This document shows positions 1,755-11,592 of a DNA stretch of 64,000 nucleotides, in pieces. Location of the stretch: the NCBI GenBank assembly GCA_965248835.1, contig CBDFLJ010000002.1, positions 928,001-992,000 of the forward strand, read 5' to 3'. The DNA comes from Alphaproteobacteria bacterium. Its GTDB lineage: Bacteria; Pseudomonadota; Alphaproteobacteria; MPNO01. Both the position numbers and the translations under genes were made by a program. The first letter of the stretch is position 1. The number at the start of each line of letters is the position of its first letter. The notes beneath the pieces were generated by a model. It saw only the letters and a program-made list of their open reading frames with translations, made no database searches and was not told the origin of the DNA.

Positions 1755-2870
1755 TCACACCGGGAAGGCGAGCGCGTCCTTCGGGATGGCGGTCCGCTTG
1801 CCCCCGCGCTGGGCTAGGAAGGCAGCCTTGATCTGGCGGCGGAGCTTGACCGTCTCCTGATCGACGTTGAACAGGAACTCGTTCTTGCGCGCGTCGACCA
1901 GGCTGCCCTGGGCGGCGGCGATGACCGCGTCCTCGGCGGAGACCTGGCGGGCGCGAGGCTGGGCGACCTCGTGGAAGAACCTTGTCAACCGCTCTCGCTC
2001 GGCCGGGTCTTTCGCCCGGAAGCTCGCGAAGCGGGTCACCAGCGTGCGCTCGGCGTCGATCGGTATCTGCCAGACCCGGACGATATAGGGATCGAGCTCC
2101 GATCTGGGCTGGATCGGGTTGGTCGAAAGACACGGCAGCACGAACCGGTCGCCCTTGACGTCGGCGAAATGTCCCTGACCGATCGGATTGCCCGCTGCAT
2201 CGGTCGCCACCGCGCGGATACCGTAAGAGGTGTCGAGGATCTTGACCCGCCGCTCGGCCAGCGGGGCGACGGCCTCGCCGTCCGCGGCGGCGACCGACTG
2301 CGATCCGGCATGAAGGGTGACCGAGTGATAGGCATCCTGGCCGTCGAGCGTCAGCAGCCAGTTCGCCTGCCAGATCTCGGTCGGGAAGCGGAACCAGATG
2401 AAGTTCCGCTCATCCAGCAACTCTTCGGGGACCTCGTCTTCCAGCGGCGGCGGCGGAAATTTCTCGGCGTCGCCGATATAGACCCAGATGTAGCCGCCGA
2501 GCTCCTCGGCCCGGAAGGCGCGGACCGCGATCTCCTCGCGCAGCCGGCTGTCCTCGGGCTCCCACGGGATCAGCGCGCAACGCCCGTCGCCGTCGAACCG
2601 GATGCCGTGGAACAGGCACTGCAGCCTGCCGTCAAGCACCCGGCCGATGGCAAGCTCGGCGTTGCGGTGCGGGCAACGGCCATGGACCGCGCAGACCTTC
2701 CCGGCCGCGTCGCGCCACAGCGCCAGCTCCTCGCCCAGCAAAGCAACGCCGATCGGCTCATCGCGCCCCAGCGCGTCCGAATGGGCGATCGGATACCAGT
2801 AGTTGCGCAGCCCGACCTCCAGCCCCTCCGGCACATCCGGGACGATCTCCTTGATCTCGGCTTTGCTCAC
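1755..2870 (-). CDS. Rieske non-heme iron oxygenase, alpha subunit (VanA/phthalate-type group)
   Basis: GLRNYWYP; Rieske ligands CPH...CLFHG; mononuclear Fe motif DAYHSVTLH; C-terminal AEDAVI. GTG start at 2870 with GGAG upstream. Confidence 0.9.
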   Translation of the reverse strand: MSKAEIKEIVPDVPEGLEVGLRNYWYPIAHSDALGRDEPIGVALLGEELALWRDAAGKVCAVHGRCPHRNAELAIGRVLDGRLQCLFHGIRFDGDGRCALIPWEPEDSRLREEIAVRAFRAEELGGYIWVYIGDAEKFPPPPLEDEVPEELLDERNFIWFRFPTEIWQANWLLTLDGQDAYHSVTLHAGSQSVAAADGEAVAPLAERRVKILDTSYGIRAVATDAAGNPIGQGHFADVKGDRFVLPCLSTNPIQPRSELDPYIVRVWQIPIDAERTLVTRFASFRAKDPAERERLTRFFHEVAQPRARQVSAEDAVIAAAQGSLVDARKNEFLFNVDQETVKLRRQIKAAFLAQRGGKRTAIPKDALAFPV

Positions 2871-2956
2871 TTGCCAGGCCCTCCAGCCGGGTCGCAACGC
2901 GGCACCTGAAGCGCTATCGTCGTCCAAACGCCCTGCATCGGCAAGCGGACGGGGAC

Positions 2957-3877
2957 TTGGGCACGAACCTCGATATCATCATCGTCGGCGGCGGCATCGC
3001 CGGGCTGACGGCGGGGCTGCAGTCGGCGCGGCTCGGGCTGTCCTGTCTGGTGCTTACCGGCGAGATGCCCGGCGGCCATCTGCTGAGCATCGGCCGGATC
3101 GATGGCTATCCGGGATTTTCCGACGGCGTTGCGGGCTACGATTTGTGCCCGGGGATCCAACTCGAGGCCGCGGACTGCGGCGCGGCCTTCGCCGCGGCCT
3201 CGCTCGAGACCTTGGAGGTCGGCGCGAACGGGGTCGTCGTCTCCACCGGACGGGACAGCTATGCCGCCCAGGCTGTGATTCTCGCCACCGGGACGCGATT
3301 CAGGACGCTCGGCGTCCCGGGCGAGGACCGGCTGCGCGGCAAGGGTGTCAGCCAGTGCGCAAGCTGTGATGCGCCGTTGCTGCGCGACCGTGTGGTCGCG
3401 GTCGTCGGCGGCGGCGACTCGGCCCTGCAGGAGGCGCTGACGCTCGCCGAGTTTGCCGAGCGCGTGGTGATCGTTCATCGCGGCGCTGCCCTCGGCGGGC
3501 AGCAGGCCTACCGCGCGCGCATCGCGGCTCACCCGAAGATCGAGGTGCGGCTCGGCACCGCCGTGGAGGAGATTCGCGGCGAGGAGGCGGTCGGCGCCAT
3601 CACACTCACCGATGGCGATCTGGAGGTCGCCGGGGTGTTCATATACATTGGCCTTGAGCCGAATACCGGCCCTCTGCGCGGCCTCGTCGGGCTCGACGAG
3701 GCGGGGCACATCCCGACCGGCGTCTCGATGGCCACCGGTCTCAAGGGGGTTTTCGCGGCCGGGACGGTGCGGGCCGGGGCGGCCGGACGGGCGGCGGCCG
3801 CGGCAGGCGATGGCGCGGCCGCTGCGATTGCTGCCGCGCGGTATCTGAAGAGCGGCGTTTGGGAGGATCTCGAATGA
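2957..3877 (+). CDS. Thioredoxin-reductase-like FAD/NAD(P)H disulfide oxidoreductase
   Basis: GGGIAG, VILATG, GVSQCASCD (CxxC), VVGGGDSALQEA and GVFAAG motifs. Its stop overlaps the next ATG (ATGA). Confidence 0.88.
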   Translation: MGTNLDIIIVGGGIAGLTAGLQSARLGLSCLVLTGEMPGGHLLSIGRIDGYPGFSDGVAGYDLCPGIQLEAADCGAAFAAASLETLEVGANGVVVSTGRDSYAAQAVILATGTRFRTLGVPGEDRLRGKGVSQCASCDAPLLRDRVVAVVGGGDSALQEALTLAEFAERVVIVHRGAALGGQQAYRARIAAHPKIEVRLGTAVEEIRGEEAVGAITLTDGDLEVAGVFIYIGLEPNTGPLRGLVGLDEAGHIPTGVSMATGLKGVFAAGTVRAGAAGRAAAAAGDGAAAAIAAARYLKSGVWEDLE

Positions 3878-5508
3878 GCGAACGGCTTGCGGTTCACGAC
3901 CCGCGCGGCAACCCGCCGAGCGTCACCGGCACCCGGCTCGCCCCCAGGCTGGAGAGCCTCGACGGCAAGGTGATCTACCTGGTCGACTGCCTGTTCGACA
4001 ATTCGGACACCTTCATGCGCGAGCTCAAGGACTGGTTCGGCGGCCACCTGCCGGCTGTCGAGACCCGGATCATCAAGCCGCGCGAGAGCTGGGTCGACGA
4101 TCCCGACATGCGCAATCGGATCGAGAACGACGGCGATGGGGCGATCCTCGGGGTCGGGTTGTGAAGCACCTGTAGCCCGACGGTCGTCGGGCTGGCATTG
4201 GATCTGGAGCGGGCCGGCGTCCCGACGGTTCCGGTCCACACACATGTTTTCGACCGGCTGGCGAAGTCGGTCGCGCTGGCCAACGGCATGCCGACCGCGC
4301 GCCAGGCGTTCGTGCCCCAGCCCGTGGTCGACCGAACGTCGGCCCAGCTCCGGGCCTATATCGAAGGGGCCGATCCGGTTTCCGGGCGCCCGTTCGTGCG
4401 CGAGGTGATCGAGGGGCTGACCCGCCCGCTCGACACGGCCGACCTCAAGGGCGTGTCGTTCGAGCGCAGCACGCCACGGTTGATCGAGCCCGACACCGAG
4501 GACAAGCTGCAGTCCTTGTTCGTCCAGGACCATTGGACGGACAATCTGCCGATCGTCCTGCCGACCGAGGCGCGGGTGGCCGCGATGCTCGAAGGGACCA
4601 GCCATGCCGCCGATGAGGTCGTCGGCACGCTGCGGCCGACCGCCTATCGCGAGGCCTGGGAGTTCACCGTCGAGAAGGCCGCGGTCAACGCGGTCATGGC
4701 CGGTGCCAGGCCGGAATACCTGCCGGTCATCCTGGCGCTGCTCGCCAGCGGCCAGACGGCGCGGTCCTCCAGCACCAACTCGTTCGCGGTCATTTCGGTG
4801 GTCAACGGCCCGATCCGTGCCGCGCTCGGCATGAACGACGGGATCGGCGCGATGGGCCCCTACAACCATGCCAACGCGACCATCGGGCGGGCCTACAATC
4901 TGGCTTCGATCAACCTCCAGGGCGGCTCGGTGCCGGGCGACACCTACATGGGCTCGCTCGGCAACTGGTACAATTATTCCGCCACCTTCGCCGAGGCCGA
5001 GGAACGCAGCCCGTGGGCGCCGTTCCACGTCCAGCAGGGGTTCGCGCCCGGCGACAGCACCGCCAGCGTCTTCTTCGGCGGCTGGTACACCCATGCCGGC
5101 TACGGCCCGCGCGAGACGTGGCAGGAAAATTTCAGACGCTCGCTGGCCGGCTGCGAGCACCATTTCCCGCCGCTGTTCGTCATCGATCCGATCTGCGCGC
5201 GCGGGCTGGTCGATCTCGGTTTCGACACCAAGGAGAAGCTGATCGACTGGCTGTCCGACAACGCCCGGCTGCCGGCCCGCGAGTATTGGGACAACCAGTG
5301 GGTCCAGACACTGGTCCACCCGCTGGCGGTCGCGGGCATCGAGCCTTTCGCAGGCAGGCTCGCCGCGGCTCCGGACGAGGCGATCCGGATTTTCGAGCCG
5401 TCCGACATCCATGTCGTCGTCGCCGGCGGCGAGACCCAGGGCGCCTGGAAAATGATCGCCGGGCGCTACGGCCCCAACGCGACGGTGTCGGTCGACGCCT
5501 GGCGCTGA
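3874..5508 (+). CDS. Probable selenoprotein, UGSC-like family (Sec at codon 97, UxxC motif), about 544 aa
   Basis: ORFs 3859..4164 and 4198..5508 are in the same frame, separated only by TGA 4162-4164. Read-through gives GAILGVGL-U-STCSPTVVGLALDLERAGVPTV. A SECIS-like hairpin follows. Confidence 0.85.
4171..4197 (+). promoter_or_regulatory. Putative bacterial SECIS element
   Basis: Perfect 8-bp stem AGCCCGAC/GTCGGGCT (4174-4181/4186-4193) with apical loop GGTC beginning 18 nt after the TGA; extendable by TGT/GGCA with a bulge. Confidence 0.8.
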
Positions 5509-5554: not shown

Positions 5555-6631
5555 TCATTGCGCGGCTTCGTCCTCGTGCGCGGCCAGGGCGGCGACTTGA
5601 GCTTCGGCCTTATCGGCCATCAGCTTGCGCACGCGGGTCAGCCCGACATCGTGGTCGTAGAGGTGTTCGCGGGAATCGGCGTCCGGATCGATGGATTCCG
5701 CGACCAGCCGGTCCTGCTCCAGCACGTCCCAGTGCCGCGCTTCCAGCCGGTTCCTGTAAAGAAAGCGCCAGACGTCGCGCTGCCAGCCCGAAACCTTTCG
5801 GTGGCGCCAGAAGAAGCAGGCCGAACTTCCCTCGTCGATCGGGGTGATGTGGAAGACGATGCCGAAATTACCGCCCGGCCCGCCGGTGTCGGGGTAAGGG
5901 ATCTCCAGGCAGACGGCCTGGAAGTCGCGGTCGTACCACTCCGACCAGTCGAAGTTGAGGTCGCGCTGGCCCTTCTTCTCGAAGACGAAGCCGGTCGCGG
6001 TCTTGCGCATGCGGAAGGAAGCCTGATCCGCACCTTCGGCCATGGAATGGGAGACCCGGTGCAGGAATGCGCCGTGCATCGGGTCCATGTTGTTGTCGAT
6101 GATGTAGCGGTAGGGGCAGCGCCATTCGGCGTAGCACAGGAAGACGCCATATTCCTCGCTGCTCAGCCTCTCGGGCGGGGTGAACGGCGCGGGGTTCGCA
6201 TGGAGCGCATCGCCGTACCAGGCGAAGATCGCCCCGCGGTGCTCGATCGCCGGGTAGGTGCGGACGGCGCGGCAGCCGATCAGATCGGAGCCGGGCTGGC
6301 CGGGCAGCGCGGCCACAATGCCGTCGCCGGTGATCTCCGCGCCGTGATAGAGGCAGGTCAGCCGGTCGCCGTCATGGCGGGCGATCGACAGCGGCGCGCC
6401 GCGGTGGGGACAGCGGTCGTCCTGAAGATGGACCGCGCCCGCGTCGTCGCGCCACAGCACCAGCTTGCGGTCCCAGCGCCGCAGCGCGACCGGCCGTGCG
6501 CCCACCCGAGCCGAAGGGCAGATGCCGTACCAGCGGTTCCGGAGCCCGGTCGCCAGCAGCGTCCTCGCGTCCTCGCTCGCCCGGTGAAGCGGGTTAGCCG
6601 TCGCCGCCGCCCAGCCGGCGCATCTCCGCAC
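5555..6631 (-). CDS. Rieske non-heme iron oxygenase, alpha subunit
   Basis: GLRNRWYG; CPHRG...CLYHG; NNMDPMHGAFLH; VLEQDR. Start uncertain: in-frame GTG at 6631 with GAGG upstream, or ACG at 6601. The longer 7165 ORF overlaps the upstream gene. Confidence 0.88.
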   Translation of the reverse strand: MRRCAGWAAATANPLHRASEDARTLLATGLRNRWYGICPSARVGARPVALRRWDRKLVLWRDDAGAVHLQDDRCPHRGAPLSIARHDGDRLTCLYHGAEITGDGIVAALPGQPGSDLIGCRAVRTYPAIEHRGAIFAWYGDALHANPAPFTPPERLSSEEYGVFLCYAEWRCPYRYIIDNNMDPMHGAFLHRVSHSMAEGADQASFRMRKTATGFVFEKKGQRDLNFDWSEWYDRDFQAVCLEIPYPDTGGPGGNFGIVFHITPIDEGSSACFFWRHRKVSGWQRDVWRFLYRNRLEARHWDVLEQDRLVAESIDPDADSREHLYDHDVGLTRVRKLMADKAEAQVAALAAHEDEAAQ

Positions 6632-7214
6632 CGAAGCTCGCCTCGGTCCACGGCTTGCCGTCCGGCGCCGCGATGCCGAGCGCGTTGAGCCCGGCGGCGA
6701 TTTCCGCCAGATCCTGGACGCCGCGCCGGAACAGCTCCTCCAGCGCATCGCCCAGCCGGTTCTCGGCCTCGTCCGGCTCTCCGGCACCGGATTGCCGGGG
6801 CTCCAGGGAGAGCCCGTTGTGGGGCAGGCGCGGGTGATCGCCGCCGCCGGCTCGGCTGTTGACCGGCCCGTCGGGGTCGGCCCAGGCCGTGCCGCGGGCC
6901 TTCGCTTCGCGGGCCAGGCGTTCGCGCACGCCGATGAAATCGTAGCTCGGATAGGTCTCGGTGCGGAAAACGCCCCAGGCCGATCGCTCCAGCTCGACGT
7001 TGACCGCCTGCAGCCTGGAGGGCGGCAGGCGTAGGGTGAGGATCTGGCCGACTCCCATGACCACGTTCCACGACACGATCTCGACGCCTTCGGGCGGGAA
7101 GCGCCCCCACCAGTCGCGCTCGTCGAGCTTGGCCTGAAACTCCTCCAGGCGCTGCGACTGGTCATGGCGCAGGAAGACGGTGAGCAGGATCTCCTCGCCC
7201 TTGATATCGTCCAT
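6594..7214 (-). CDS. Two-domain hypothetical protein: N-terminal alpha/beta domain plus C-terminal recombinase-like HTH domain seen next to Rieske oxygenases
   Basis: N-part LLTVFLRHDQS...FPPEGVEIVSW; C-part ENRLGDALEELF..G..DL...AAGLNA.G...PDG.PWT..SF.AEM.RLG. Overlaps the Rieske gene start. Confidence 0.65.
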   Translation of the reverse strand: MDDIKGEEILLTVFLRHDQSQRLEEFQAKLDERDWWGRFPPEGVEIVSWNVVMGVGQILTLRLPPSRLQAVNVELERSAWGVFRTETYPSYDFIGVRERLAREAKARGTAWADPDGPVNSRAGGGDHPRLPHNGLSLEPRQSGAGEPDEAENRLGDALEELFRRGVQDLAEIAAGLNALGIAAPDGKPWTEASFGAEMRRLGGGDG

Positions 7215-7412
7215 CAACGGTCTCCCGATTTCTCGTGCGCCAGCTTCGCACAGTCCGGCGTCTCGAGCAGCGGCCTCGTGTCCAGGCGTCGGCGCACGCC
7301 GCAGAACCGCCGGACCCGGCCATCCTCTTTCATACAGCGGTGAAGTACGCGAAGCGGTCCGGTTTCGCCGTCAAGACCGGCGGCCGGCGCTGTCCACCGA
7401 CCGGGCGGCGGT

Positions 7413-7442
7413 TTGACAAGCCCACCGCAGGGCTTGCATGCT
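7413..7442 (+). promoter_or_regulatory. Candidate sigma70 promoter with a palindromic operator in the spacer
   Basis: TTGACA (7413-7418), 18-nt spacer, CATGCT. Inverted repeat CAAGCCC-n6-GGGCTTG at 7417-7436. Lies 30 nt upstream of the ABC operon start. Confidence 0.45.
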
Positions 7443-7471
7443 CGCTTTCCAATAAAGCAAGGGAGAGGACG

Positions 7472-8551
7472 ATGAGGTTCAGCGGACGACGAGCGCCGGC
7501 TCTTCTGGGCGCCGCGCTGGCGGCGGCGATTGCGGTTCCGGCCGCGGCCGAGACCGTCAAGGTCGGGATGCCGATACCGGTCACGCTCACCGATCTCGGC
7601 TATTACGCGTTCGGCGAGGAACTCGGGTTTTTCAAAGAAGGCGATATCGATCTCAGGATCATCGTCTTCAAGGGCTCGGGCAAGATGGTGCCGCAGGTCG
7701 CGACCAAGAAGCTCGACATCGGCTGGGCTCTGCCCGGTGCGCTGTTCAAGACTTACCAGCCGGGGCGCACCCGGCTGCCGGTGGTCTATTTCTACAACAT
7801 CATGCCGACCTGGACGCTGCAGCTCTCGGTGCTGGCGTCTTCGAACATCAAGACGGTCGCCGACCTCAAGGGCAGGAAAATCGGCATCGGCGCGCTGACA
7901 TGGGGCACGATTCCGATGCTGAAGGCGCGGCTCAAGGACGCCGGGCTCACGGTGGGCGAGAATGTCGAGCTCGCCGCGGTCGGCATCCTGGGCTCCGGGT
8001 TCCTCGCGCTCAAGCGCGGCCGGATCGATGCGCTCGACTACAACAACACCTGGCAGGACCTGCTGGAGCTGTCGGGCACCAAGATCCGGCGCCTGCCGAT
8101 CAAGGAGAAGTTCCATAACCTGTTCACCAACGGGTTCATGGCCCACCGCGAGACGCTGGCTCCCAAGCGCGACATGCTGGTGCGGTTTGCCCGCGGTATG
8201 GCCAAATCCTCGATCGCTTGCCAGGAGAACCCGGCCGCCTGCGTGAAGGCATTCTGGCGCAAGCACCCGAACATGAAGCCCAAGGGCGATGAGGCCAAGA
8301 CGCTGCCGGCCTCGGTCAAGATGGTCAACAACCGGCTGGCGCTGATGAACGTCGGGCCCAAGGACATGGTCGGCAAGATGGGCCACTGGCCGCGCAAGTC
8401 GTTCGAGCACTACGTCAACGCGTATTATGAGAGCGGCTGGATAACGACCCGCGATATCGAGATCGACAAGATGTACACCAACGAGATGATCGCCGACATC
8501 AACGGCTTCGACGAGGGCGACGTCAGGGCGAAGGCGCGCGCGGCGAACTGA
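7472..8551 (+). CDS. ABC transporter substrate-binding protein (NMT1/THI5/SsuA/TauA-like)
   Basis: GGGAGAGG RBS, signal peptide ending AAA-ET, ELGFFKEGDID and IKTVADLKGRKIG motifs. Confidence 0.88.
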   Translation: MRFSGRRAPALLGAALAAAIAVPAAAETVKVGMPIPVTLTDLGYYAFGEELGFFKEGDIDLRIIVFKGSGKMVPQVATKKLDIGWALPGALFKTYQPGRTRLPVVYFYNIMPTWTLQLSVLASSNIKTVADLKGRKIGIGALTWGTIPMLKARLKDAGLTVGENVELAAVGILGSGFLALKRGRIDALDYNNTWQDLLELSGTKIRRLPIKEKFHNLFTNGFMAHRETLAPKRDMLVRFARGMAKSSIACQENPAACVKAFWRKHPNMKPKGDEAKTLPASVKMVNNRLALMNVGPKDMVGKMGHWPRKSFEHYVNAYYESGWITTRDIEIDKMYTNEMIADINGFDEGDVRAKARAAN

Positions 8552-9361
8552 ATGGCAGCGACCGGAACCGGAGTGGCCGCCGCCGCGTCGACCGCGGAGT
8601 CCGCTCCGGTCCTGGCTGCCGAGGGCCTGTCGCTGGTCTATCAGACCCGCCGCGGAACGATCACCGCGCTTGAGGCGCTCGACTTGGCGATCGGCCGGGG
8701 CGAGTTCTTTTCTTTGATCGGGCCGTCGGGTTGCGGCAAATCGAGCCTCCTCAAGGTCGCCGCCGGACTGCTGCCCCAGACCACCGGCACGATCACGCTC
8801 GACGGCATCGCGGTGACCGGGCCGCGGCGCGAGGTGGGCGTGGTCTTCCAGCGCCCGACGCTGCTGCCCTGGAAGACGGTCACCCAAAATGTGCTGCTGC
8901 CGGCCGAGACGCTGCAGCTCGACATGGCTGGCGCCAAGAGCCGTGCGGACGAGCTGCTCAGGCTGGTCGGTCTCGGGGAGTTCGCCGACAACTATCCGAA
9001 CGAGCTTTCCGGCGGTATGCAGCAGCGCGTCGGCATCGCCCGGGCGCTGATCCACGACCCGGCGGTGCTGCTGATGGACGAGCCGTTCGCCGCCCTCGAC
9101 GCCCTGACCCGCGAGCACATGATGATGGAGCTCCAGGACATCTGGCTGTCGACCGGCAAGTCGGTCCTGTTCATCACCCACTCGATCCCCGAGGCGGTGT
9201 TCCTGTCCGACCGGGTCGCGGTGATGTCGCAGCGCCCCGGCCGGATCATCCGCGAGCACGTCGTCGAGATAGCGCGCGCGCGCGATCTGGCGACGATGGT
9301 CGATCCGCAATTCAACCAGACCTGCAACGAGCTTCGCGCCGAGCTCACGGTCGATCTGTAG
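8552..9361 (+). CDS. ABC transporter ATP-binding protein (nitrate/sulfonate type)
   Basis: Walker A GPSGCGKS, signature LSGGMQQR, Walker B LLMDEPF, H-loop FITH. Confidence 0.95.
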   Translation: MAATGTGVAAAASTAESAPVLAAEGLSLVYQTRRGTITALEALDLAIGRGEFFSLIGPSGCGKSSLLKVAAGLLPQTTGTITLDGIAVTGPRREVGVVFQRPTLLPWKTVTQNVLLPAETLQLDMAGAKSRADELLRLVGLGEFADNYPNELSGGMQQRVGIARALIHDPAVLLMDEPFAALDALTREHMMMELQDIWLSTGKSVLFITHSIPEAVFLSDRVAVMSQRPGRIIREHVVEIARARDLATMVDPQFNQTCNELRAELTVDL

Positions 9362-9379
9362 CACGTTCGGGAGGCTGGC

Positions 9380-10168
9380 ATGCCTGACAGGTTCAGGACA
9401 GCGCTTTATCCGCTGATCACGGTCGCGGTCATCGTCGTCGCCTGGGAGCTCGCGATCCGCGAATTCGCGATCGAGGACTATATCCTGCCGCACCCGTGGC
9501 TGGTGGTGACCTCGATCGTCGACGGGTTCCGCCAGGGCGGCTTCATGGCGCATTTCTGGGCGACCGCCGAGGCGACGGTGCTGGGTTATGTCCTGGGCTG
9601 CGGGCTCGCGTTCCTGATCGGCGTCGCCGTGGCCGAATCGGTGACCTTCGACAAGTTCGTCTACCCTTGCGTGGTGGCGTTGCAGTCGATGCCCAAGGTC
9701 GCGCTGGCGCCGCTGATCCTGGTCTGGTTCGGCCACGAGATTGAATCGCGGATCATCATGGTCGGGCTGATCTGCTTCTTCCCGATGTTCGTCAACACCG
9801 TCGTGGGCATCCGCCAGACCGACCCGGAGCTGATCGATCTGTGCAAGGCGTTCTCGGCCTCGCGGCGTTACGTGTTCTTCAACGCCAAGCTGCCTTCGGC
9901 GGCGACCGAGATCTTCGCCGGCCTCCAGATCGGCGTGGTGCTGGCGTTGATCGGCGCGGTGGTGGCCGAGTTCGTCGCCTCCGAGCGCGGGATCGGCCAC
10001 ATGATCGATTCGGCCGCGGTCAGCCTGACGGTCTCCAACATGTTCGCCGGCGTCATCATCCTCGCGGTCATGGGCGTGGTCGGCACTGCGGTGGTGCGCG
10101 CCCTGCAGCGTCGCGTCGTCTTCTGGGAGGGCGGTTCGGCGCGGGTCAACTTGGAGCAGGCCTCATGA
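9380..10168 (+). CDS. ABC transporter permease (nitrate/sulfonate type)
   Basis: Multiple transmembrane segments; PKVALAPL, FFP and GAVVAEF motifs. Confidence 0.92.
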   Translation: MPDRFRTALYPLITVAVIVVAWELAIREFAIEDYILPHPWLVVTSIVDGFRQGGFMAHFWATAEATVLGYVLGCGLAFLIGVAVAESVTFDKFVYPCVVALQSMPKVALAPLILVWFGHEIESRIIMVGLICFFPMFVNTVVGIRQTDPELIDLCKAFSASRRYVFFNAKLPSAATEIFAGLQIGVVLALIGAVVAEFVASERGIGHMIDSAAVSLTVSNMFAGVIILAVMGVVGTAVVRALQRRVVFWEGGSARVNLEQAS

Positions 10169-11592
10169 GCGAGCCCGATCTCTGCTATCTCGGCGGCGCC
10201 GAGGCCGCGCGACGGATCGCCGCCGGCGCGCTGTCCCCGGTGGCGCTGGTCGAGGCGATCCTGGCCCGGATCGATGCCGTGCAGCCGGCGCTGAACCCTT
10301 TCACGATCGTCTGCGCCGAGCAGGCGCGCGAGGCCGCGCACGCGGCCGAGGCGGCGCTGGAGCGCGGCGAAGCCACCGGCCCGCTCCACGGCGTGCCCTA
10401 TACGGCCAAGGACATGATCAATGTCGCCGGCCTGCGGATCACCTTCGGCTCGCCGATGTTCGAGGACAACGTGGCCGACGCCGATACCGTGGTCATCGCG
10501 CGGCTCAGACAGGCCGGCGCGATCCTGATCGGCATTACCAACATGGCCGAGTGCGGCCACAAGGGAACCAACGACAACCCGGTCTGGGGGATGACCCGAA
10601 ACCCGTGGAACCCCGAAACCACCCCCGGCGGCTCGTCCGGCGGGGCTGCGACGGCGCTTGCGACCGGCTGCGGCGCGCTGGCGCTTGGCACCGACCGTGC
10701 CGGGTCGGTCCGGATCCCCGCCGGCGCAACCGGCGTCCTGGGGCTCAAGCCCACGCTTGGCGTCTTCCCCTGTCCGGAGACGCCGGACCTGTTCGACACC
10801 ACGACCGTGATCGGCCCGATGGCGCGGTCGGTCGAGGACATCGCGCTGCTGATGAGCGTCTGCGGCGGACCCGACTCGCGCGATCCCTGGTCGCACGGCG
10901 CGGCCAGGAAGGACTACGCCGCCGCGCCGCGCGGCGACATGAAAGGCGTGCGCATCGCCTGGGCGCCGCTGGTCGGCAACGCGGCCATCGACCACGAGAC
11001 GCGGGCGATCTGCGAGGAAGCGGTCGAGGCCTTCCGCCGGCTCGGCGCCGAGGTCCGCGAGATCGACATCGACCTGTCGGCGGCGGTGGACATTCTCTAC
11101 GCCCTGGTCGGGGCGCTGGCACACGCGGCCTACGGCGAGAAGATGGACAGGTTCGGCGAGCGCATCGATCCCTCGCTGCGGCAGGGCATCGCGATGGGCG
11201 GTGCGCTGAGCGCGACGGACCTGGAAAAGGCGCTGTTCGGCCGAGCCGAGCTGTTCCGCAGGATCGAGGCGGTGCTGGCCGAAAACGACCTGCTGGTCAC
11301 GCCCACCCTGACCCGGCCGGCGATCGCCGCCGACCACTTCGCGTTCGACCCGGTGGTGATCAACGGACGACCGCACCGCTCGCCGCGCCATGATTGGTAT
11401 CCCTACACCCATCCGTTCAACCACACCGGACACCCGGCATTGGCTCTGCCGGCGGGCTGGACCGAAGACGGCATGCCGGTGGGGCTGCAGATCGTCGGCC
11501 CCTGGCATTGCGAAGACCGGCTGATCGCCGCCGGCGCCGAGCTCGAAGCCGCGCGGCCCTGGTCGGGGCGCCGTCCGCCCCTGCCGTCCTGA
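10165..11592 (+). CDS. Amidase-signature family amidase
   Basis: GPLHGVPYTAKD, TPGGSSGG and GTDRAGSVRIPA supply the Lys-cisSer-Ser triad. ATGA overlap with the permease. Confidence 0.92.
   Translation: MSEPDLCYLGGAEAARRIAAGALSPVALVEAILARIDAVQPALNPFTIVCAEQAREAAHAAEAALERGEATGPLHGVPYTAKDMINVAGLRITFGSPMFEDNVADADTVVIARLRQAGAILIGITNMAECGHKGTNDNPVWGMTRNPWNPETTPGGSSGGAATALATGCGALALGTDRAGSVRIPAGATGVLGLKPTLGVFPCPETPDLFDTTTVIGPMARSVEDIALLMSVCGGPDSRDPWSHGAARKDYAAAPRGDMKGVRIAWAPLVGNAAIDHETRAICEEAVEAFRRLGAEVREIDIDLSAAVDILYALVGALAHAAYGEKMDRFGERIDPSLRQGIAMGGALSATDLEKALFGRAELFRRIEAVLAENDLLVTPTLTRPAIAADHFAFDPVVINGRPHRSPRHDWYPYTHPFNHTGHPALALPAGWTEDGMPVGLQIVGPWHCEDRLIAAGAELEAARPWSGRRPPLPS

Follow-up and report, generated by a model that had tools for sequence, protein, structure and literature searches.

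A 64,000-nucleotide (nt) stretch of an alphaproteobacterial genome (NCBI GenBank assembly GCA_965248835.1, contig CBDFLJ010000002.1, positions 928,001 to 992,000; hereafter the window) encodes in two overlapping genes a thioredoxin reductase (TrxR)-like flavoprotein and a long selenoprotein of the UGSC family. Among 72 genomic loci with relatives of this selenoprotein, the reductase gene is the sole conserved neighbour of the selenoprotein gene, and other neighbours vary by lineage. We lean towards the view that the flavoprotein is the dedicated donor that recycles the selenium-sulfur (Se-S) centre of the selenoprotein, which consists of an N-terminal UGSC domain and a large C-terminal domain (C-domain). 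All statements on the sequence were re-checked on the letters of the window.

Linkage of the reductase gene and relationships of the flavoprotein

A locus survey found 422 relatives of the selenoprotein, of which the best 80 hits were kept, corresponding to the 72 distinct genomic loci. In 48 of them, a TrxR-like gene shares the strand of the selenoprotein gene and lies no more than 6 kb away, upstream in 43 cases and downstream in five; in 38 of the 43 upstream cases, at most ~141 nt separate it from the first selenoprotein copy. In most loci, the two genes are too close together for a thioredoxin gene to fit between them. As judged by record titles and the tree, the linked loci belong to Pseudomonadota (Alphaproteobacteria, Burkholderiales, and Gammaproteobacteria), Acidobacteriota, and one planctomycete (Planctomycetota). 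When all open reading frames (ORFs) of at least 100 amino acids (aa) in the 72 loci were clustered, any other neighbour was found in at most 15 loci. These were two unnamed clusters (15 and 12 loci), MFS (12), AMP-binding (nine), and SDR, DUF1989, acyl-CoA dehydrogenase, SelD-like, and TctC (eight each). Alternative-frame ORFs inside the selenoprotein gene itself formed three further clusters, in 29-35 loci. Rieske, SDR, and solute-binding neighbours were considered as conserved partners and rejected, with 6-7, 8, and 1 of the 72 loci, respectively.

The two genes also co-occur at the level of whole genomes. Among 300 evenly drawn Alphaproteobacteria, the reductase paralog (E ≤ 1e-60) was found in three, and the selenoprotein (E ≤ 1e-60) in the same three. 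Because these three genomes come from two genera, the co-occurrence represents at most two independent events. A cultured species in which the pair can be found is Hyphococcus aureus KCTC 62394, where genes encoding the long UGSC protein (UGSC-long), the TrxR-like protein, SelA, and SelB follow one another in this order, all on one strand (locus L082, 5677-12008). An earlier reading of this DNA from the sequence only had proposed a dedicated reductase-selenoprotein pair, and the proposal is strengthened by the linkage, by the co-occurrence, and by the separate clade described below. Its expectation that a neighbourhood survey would find the two genes co-conserved holds in part, since they are linked in two-thirds of the loci and the pairing is not obligatory, the remaining 24 loci lacking it.

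By its sequence, the flavoprotein is a specialised paralog that forms its own clade apart from the housekeeping thioredoxin reductase TrxB. The 306-aa protein scores 118 bits on Pfam Pyr_redox_2. Its best NCBIfam match, TIGR01292 (thioredoxin-disulfide reductase), is reached with 264.6 bits, under the cut-off of 343.45; the canonical trxB found elsewhere in the genome scores 404.2 bits on the same model. A quickly computed maximum-likelihood tree places 46 linked reductases apart from six canonical TrxBs, taken from the window's genome and five others, with 100% SH-aLRT on the dividing branch. The best solved relatives of the flavoprotein are thioredoxin reductases (e.g. 5uth and 2q7v, 286 bits), and its next-best NCBIfam matches are AhpF families, TIGR03143 with 186 bits and TIGR03140 with 151 bits. 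Of the 515 positions of the AhpF model, its alignment covers just 212-511, the N-terminal tandem thioredoxin fold being absent.

The flavoprotein carries the glycine motifs for FAD and NAD(P)H (GGGIAG and GGGDSA) plus a CxxC motif. Neither of the two cysteines, C134 and C137, varies among 38 aligned members of the clade, which retain GGGDSA. Alignment to the genome's own TrxB agrees with the sequence-only reading that FAAGT replaces FAAGD and that RQA is missing. The window protein reads VFAAGTVRAG where TrxB has VFAAGDVQDK, and AGRAAAAAG (aGRA in the clade) where TrxB has YRQAVTAAG. A further difference concerns the motif HRRDRLRA of TrxB, which is HRGAALGG in the window protein (clade consensus hRG.al.aQ); the reductase of L082 has IENGD at the place of HRG. 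In TrxR, the Arg residues of the HRRxxxR motif bind the 2'-phosphate of NADPH. Since these residues are replaced here, use of NADPH is doubtful, and specificity for NADH or for both nucleotides is plausible. This qualifies the proposal of the sequence-only reading as regards NADPH.

Selenocysteine decoding and domains of the selenoprotein

The single internal TGA of the selenoprotein gene is a selenocysteine (Sec) codon, because the TGA is conserved, the hairpin that follows it covaries, and both Sec machinery and Cys homologues are present. Searching a protein collection with the selenoprotein returned more than 7,400 relatives, and the best 120 listed are ORFs of 406-438 aa that begin after the TGA and correspond to the last ~80% of the query, so that gene prediction breaks at one and the same site throughout. 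A TGA is found at the same position in 83 of the 84 full-length homologous copies in the 72 loci. The remaining copy has Cys; it is a 54% identical paralog (L040 9608-11239, minus strand; GVGH-C-STC), 2.3 kb from a Sec copy on the same Xanthobacteraceae contig. In addition, both redox positions are occupied by Cys in five of 20 full-length relatives that had been gene-called.

The hairpin, which is of the selenocysteine insertion sequence (SECIS) type, consists of eight pairs. Over 76 distinct sequences, 94.7% of the cells in these columns are paired, and shifting the partner by 1-3 columns lowers this value to 21-52%. One pair, at columns 18-27, joins two synonymous third-codon positions and occurs as GC (51), CG (22), UA (2), and AU (1); a second compensating pair occurs as AU (68) and GC (5). 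The observed covariation score was reached by none of 500 shuffles. Two separate genes, or a pseudogene, were considered as readings of the interrupted frame and rejected, as TGA and hairpin are both conserved. All components of the Sec machinery are found in the genome above their family cut-offs: selA (559 bits), selB (444 bits), selD (309 bits), and tRNA-Sec (74.7 bits). The genes selA, selB, and tRNA-Sec form one cluster and selD is elsewhere, all of them on another contig than the window. The selD match (contig C1, 494681-495598) is inside an open frame of 817 aa, which may encode a fusion protein.

The N-terminal part of the protein belongs to the UGSC family. Residues 7-162 score 86 bits on Pfam PF24696 (gathering cut-off 25), which is also matched by 52 of 60 aligned relatives, and close relatives carry the NCBI name 'UGSC family (seleno)protein'. 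The U-x-x-C motif is at the loop-helix junction typical of the family, with the letters U-S-T-C instead of U-G-S-C. With 544 residues, the protein is much larger than the ~150-175 usual in the family, and it does not reach the cut-off of the short-form equivalog NF041046 (61.2 bits versus 125). Residues ~196-544 form a second domain of about 350 residues that the sequence-only reading had not noticed. They match no Pfam family, even with the threshold relaxed to E ≤ 1, and scanning 60 family members in this way turned up neither a second family nor GRDB (PF07355). A profile of the C-domain gave no hits at E ≤ 1 against PDB sequences, and a protein atlas search returned the selenoprotein's own family alone. 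Fusions to thioredoxin were absent among 30 representatives.

The fusion itself has been described before. In the sections of the paper drawn on here, Zhang & Gladyshev (2008) count UGSC among the major selenoprotein families of the Global Ocean Sampling (GOS) data, with 255 Sec sequences versus 21 Cys homologues, guess at a thioredoxin-like fold, and describe fusion to a conserved domain named 'Unknown_1' (PMC2398784). The alignment in their Fig. S1A prints an Unknown_1 block AVNxVMAGCxPEYxP...VNGP, to which AVNAVMAGARPEYLP...VNGP of the window protein corresponds. The conserved Cys of this block (MAGC) is Ala in the window protein (MAGA). The window gene is thus a member of the already described long, fused UGSC/Unknown_1 form. 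The portions consulted of two reviews, from 2022 and 2026, still give UGSC no function (PMC9312934, PMC13188914), and the latter places it among thiol-oxidoreductase-like selenoproteins.

The same genome also contains the two domains in split form (contig C2, ~856329-859832; L097, 2047-3099 and 1483-2013, both minus strand). A stand-alone Unknown_1 protein of 350 aa (GWSDGLPVVPPT, AVNAVMAGC) is directly followed by a short UGSC protein of 176 aa with the motif VGD-U-GSC and an in-frame TGA. The short gene (C2, 857829-858332) scores 153 bits on PF24696 and represents the typical form. No TrxR-like match was found near this split pair in L097; upstream of it is the apparent C-terminal end of an SDR-type ORF. 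Since the domains are fused in the window and encoded by adjacent separate genes on contig C2, they evidently act together.

UGSC-long genes can themselves be duplicated. Tandem pairs of full-length copies, each with its own TGA, follow a single TrxR-like gene in L037, L039, L042, L048, L050, L054, L056, L059, L062, L069, and other loci. These are mostly from Acidobacteriota/Vicinamibacterales, L037 and L050 being from Hyphomicrobiales/Xanthobacteraceae, and some contain fragments of a third copy.

The full-length selenoprotein was modelled by AlphaFold2 (AF2) from a 60-sequence alignment with a pLDDT of 94.3 and a pTM of 0.92. In the predicted N-terminal domain, strands and helices alternate, and U97 is located between strand 89-95 and helix 100-113. 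As assessed by VIA-align, residues 28-191 match CheY/flavodoxin/Rossmann-type chains with Z up to 10.5, generic matches that fill the list; no thioredoxin-named entry is among the best 50 matches listed. Foldseek with the whole model gave weak matches to class I fumarate hydratase (E ~3e-4, TM 0.15). Modelled alone by AF2, the C-domain has a pLDDT of 93.8. Its best Foldseek match (E 8.9e-4, TM 0.22), again class I fumarate hydratase, is in the range of chance arrangements, and cyclic-amide-hydrolase ('Toblerone') entries appear at E ~1e-2. VIA-align of the C-domain against 48,161 chains gave a best Z of 5.8, in the range of common arrangements. The C-domain is thus predicted to have a confident fold without a clear solved relative, and we assign no fold to it. 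Its near-invariant polar residues T222, D223, E267, S300, S303, N311, N331, N334, R339, E374, and E376, plus W381, can be read as a putative ligand pocket, and the C-domain is probably the part that binds the substrate or catalyses the reaction.

Proposed electron relay and alternatives

We propose that the two overlapping genes would encode a self-contained two-protein redox system. The FAD enzyme would draw electrons from a pyridine nucleotide, NADH or either nucleotide being more likely than strictly NADPH. Directly and without thioredoxin, its C134-A-S-C137 dithiol would then reduce the U97-x-x-C100 selenenylsulfide, which is positioned where a helix of the UGSC domain begins. The reduced selenol would act on a substrate held by the fused Unknown_1 domain. 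C100 would then resolve the intermediate (Se-substrate or Se-O), restoring Se-S for another cycle. The transfer of electrons between the proteins, the nucleotide used, the binding of substrate by the C-domain, and the reductive chemistry are all steps that we infer. The cleavage of C-S, S-O, or N-O bonds that the sequence-only reading put forward is purely conjectural.

Several observations weigh against a dedicated pair of this kind. No TrxR-like gene is present in the flank of 24 of the 72 loci, and in 17 of them the sequence extends for 1 kb or more on both sides. They include L019-L025, whose selenoproteins are 83-84% identical to that of the window. Four genomes with close relatives of the window gene (G001-G004), searched whole, contain only canonical TrxB (36-38% identical), and the selenoprotein must there get its electrons from something else. 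A fifth genome with a reductase-less locus (G005), also searched whole, does have a 56% identical paralog, which nests in the tree among Xanthobacteraceae copies that precede UGSC-long. The neighbours of this paralog (L099, 1-3918) are a divergently oriented Rieske oxygenase gene and genes for an AhpD-like protein with a CxxC motif (NGCGYC) and an LLM-type monooxygenase, and no UGSC-long gene is found within 1.5 kb of it, so the flavoprotein can have other partners. The identities of the two proteins to those of the window correlate only moderately (Spearman 0.41, 44 loci). Both redox residues are missing (e.g. GGAT, MDTL, SSST) from 15 of the 20 gene-called fused relatives of full length, which are 31-54% identical; the fused family thus includes a large non-redox branch, and the C-domain can at times do without a redox-active N-domain. 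Finally, as the C-domain has no recognisable relative, the label 'reductase' is drawn entirely from the U-x-x-C centre and its partner.

The relay could be real and protective, serving to detoxify or repair peroxides, sulfoxides, or disulfides in the manner of AhpF/AhpC or Msr, with a C-domain that is structural or regulatory. We regard this as unlikely, while worth keeping in view. It would fit with the rank of the AhpF families directly behind TIGR01292, with the AhpD-like neighbour of the G005 paralog, and with the variable neighbourhood of the pair, which is to be expected for a stress function not bound to one pathway. It would also fit with the grouping of UGSC with thiol-oxidoreductase-like selenoproteins in the part of the 2026 review used here (PMC13188914). 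The C-domain argues otherwise, because it is large and strongly conserved, has invariant polar residues like those of a ligand pocket, and persists in relatives devoid of any redox residue; moreover, a Pfam scan of the pair identified no peroxiredoxin-type domain. Alternatively, the flavoprotein might serve several clients as a general CxxC reductase. The selenoprotein would then depend mainly on housekeeping thioredoxin for its reduction, and the genes would be neighbours through co-transfer in a cassette and not through an exclusive partnership. The tight arrangement of the genes makes this rather improbable: they share one strand in each of the 48 linked loci, are mostly separated by the short gaps noted above, and overlap by 4 nt in the window, and exactly the three selenoprotein-containing genomes among the 300 Alphaproteobacteria have the paralog. 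What speaks for it are the four genomes with the selenoprotein and canonical TrxB only, the loci without the neighbour, and the G005 paralog, which is next to an AhpD-like protein instead.

Another explanation, to which we give a small chance, is that the pair serves the trafficking of selenium (or sulfur) and feeds selenophosphate synthetase instead of turning over an organic substrate. A SelD-like AIRS cluster is indeed found in eight of the 72 loci, and in L075, L085, and L088 a SelD-like gene (AIRS + AIRS_C) is located between the selenoprotein and a downstream reductase; in L082, selA and selB follow the pair. Sec-machinery genes commonly adjoin the main selenoprotein gene of an organism. 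Such adjacency is therefore expected anyway, the other 64 loci have no SelD-like neighbour, and the Sec genes of the window's own genome are on a different contig. The three loci with the intervening gene are of marine Hyphomicrobiales type, and their SelD-like representative is L088 7541-8608.

It is highly improbable that the flanking Rieske oxygenases use the flavoprotein as their reductase component and that the selenoprotein is unrelated to it. A Rieske gene is divergently upstream of the flavoprotein gene in the window, and the same arrangement is found in L046, L047, L053, L057, and L099. Nevertheless, the two flanking oxygenases have homologues close to the pair in just six and seven of the 72 loci, all of them from Alphaproteobacteria and several from Xanthobacteraceae by record title, and the flavoprotein tracks the selenoprotein across phyla where the Rieske gene is absent. 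The flavoprotein also keeps its invariant CxxC, and Pfam detects no ferredoxin or 2Fe-2S domain in it. In the closest relative, L017, the sole oxygenase match is a stretch of 55 residues that resembles the second Rieske gene and directly follows the selenoprotein gene. With Rieske homologues in so few loci, the nesting of the pair in a catabolic island, which the sequence-only reading had made part of its proposal, is a matter of local context. The flanking Rieske oxygenases are outside the redox system, and the other neighbours are lineage-specific.

The layout of the genes is otherwise as the sequence-only reading had described it (Table 1). The CASC-encoding TrxR-like gene overlaps the selenoprotein start as ATGA, Pfam Rieske domains are found in the genes on both flanks, and no thioredoxin gene is close by, with zero matches to the thioredoxin domain PF00085 in the window and the nearest match ~378 kb off on the same contig. 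The ATG assigned as start of the selenoprotein is consistent with the aligned N termini of its homologues. At 7235-11592, past the second Rieske gene, there are ORFs resembling, by their translations only, a solute-binding protein, an ABC ATPase, a permease, and an amidase. In L019-L025, the closest relatives without the reductase, the genes upstream of UGSC-long are divergent (e.g. L023 1005-5640, minus strand). As identified by Pfam on cluster representatives, they encode an acyl-CoA dehydrogenase and an AMP-binding ligase, and a DUF1989 gene is found downstream. ORFs resembling aminopeptidase/NicX and alpha/beta-hydrolase are also present, as judged by translations only.

Table 1. Features of the flavoprotein-selenoprotein gene pair and its flanks; positions are those of the window
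Feature	Position	Strand	Description
TrxR-like flavoprotein gene	2957..3877	+	306 aa, TTG start; a divergent paralog of low-Mr thioredoxin reductase
Codons for C134-A-S-C137 of the flavoprotein, predicted redox-active	3356..3367	+	Read from sequence
ATGA overlap	3874..3877	+	Reductase stop TGA 3875-3877, selenoprotein ATG 3874-3876
Long-form UGSC-family selenoprotein gene	3874..5508	+	544 aa plus stop; single internal TGA
N-terminal UGSC domain, residues 1 to ~165	3874..4368	+	PF24696 match; alternating strand-helix type
Redox motif U97-S-T-C100	4162..4173	+	TGA 4162-4164 read as selenocysteine; context GVGL-U-STC
SECIS-type hairpin AGCCCGAC-GGUC-GUCGGGCU	4174..4193	+	Starts 10 nt past UGA; GGUC loop invariant
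C-terminal 'Unknown_1' / WTD-x-LP domain, residues ~196-544	4459..5505	+	No Pfam family
Rieske-domain oxygenase gene, upstream flank	1755-2927	-	Pfam Rieske
Rieske-domain oxygenase gene, downstream flank	~5555-6688	-	Pfam Rieske

Relation to known systems and significance

The flavoprotein resembles TrxB (TIGR01292) in its two-Rossmann FAD/NAD(P)H architecture, with CxxC in the pyridine-nucleotide domain, and differs from it in the presumed client, which is an alpha/beta UGSC domain and not a thioredoxin fold. As a TrxR-like flavoprotein that would serve one non-thioredoxin client encoded alongside, it is reminiscent of AhpF in the AhpF-AhpC system. Unlike AhpF, however, it has no N-terminal double thioredoxin fold, and its client is not a peroxiredoxin. 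Glycine and D-proline reductases (GrdA/GrdB, PrdB) rely on a selenoprotein with a U-x-x-C or C-x-x-U motif and on an operon-encoded TrxB-TrxA couple that recycles Se-S. The pair in the window would be similar in outline, with a reductive step carried out by a selenoprotein and an adjacent TrxR-type flavoprotein. In contrast to these reductases, none of the 60 family members matches GRDB, neither a pyruvoyl subunit nor a thioredoxin was found, and the pair occurs, by record titles, in aerobic Proteobacteria and Acidobacteriota of soil and sea instead of anaerobes fermenting amino acids.

The UGSC family and its fusion to Unknown_1 are known from the parts of the 2008 paper cited above (PMC2398784), whereas we found no published description of a TrxR-type partner of UGSC in the text returned by a full-text search of one literature collection. 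The sequence-only reading had seen in the pair a first functional handle on this selenoprotein family. With the family and its fusion on record since 2008 (PMC2398784), this was overstated; what stands is that the reductase is a co-inherited candidate for the donor. The Unknown_1 domain, fused or adjacent, is a stronger functional handle than the reductase.

A co-inherited flavoprotein as candidate donor and an obligate second domain make the orphan UGSC family, listed since the mid-2000s among the commonest selenoproteins in aquatic metagenomes, accessible to reconstitution from purified parts and to screening for substrates, and the C-domain, with its confident predicted fold and no clear solved relative, is a worthwhile structural target. 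We offer only tentatively the possibility that UGSC and Unknown_1 form a new class of selenium-dependent reductase, with an unsolved catalytic fold, that would be fed without thioredoxin by its own NADH-type TrxR paralog. If true, it would be to aerobic bacteria of soil and sea what the glycine and proline reductases are to clostridia, and it would act on a common small molecule, which would explain the abundance of UGSC among the selenoproteins of aquatic metagenomes.

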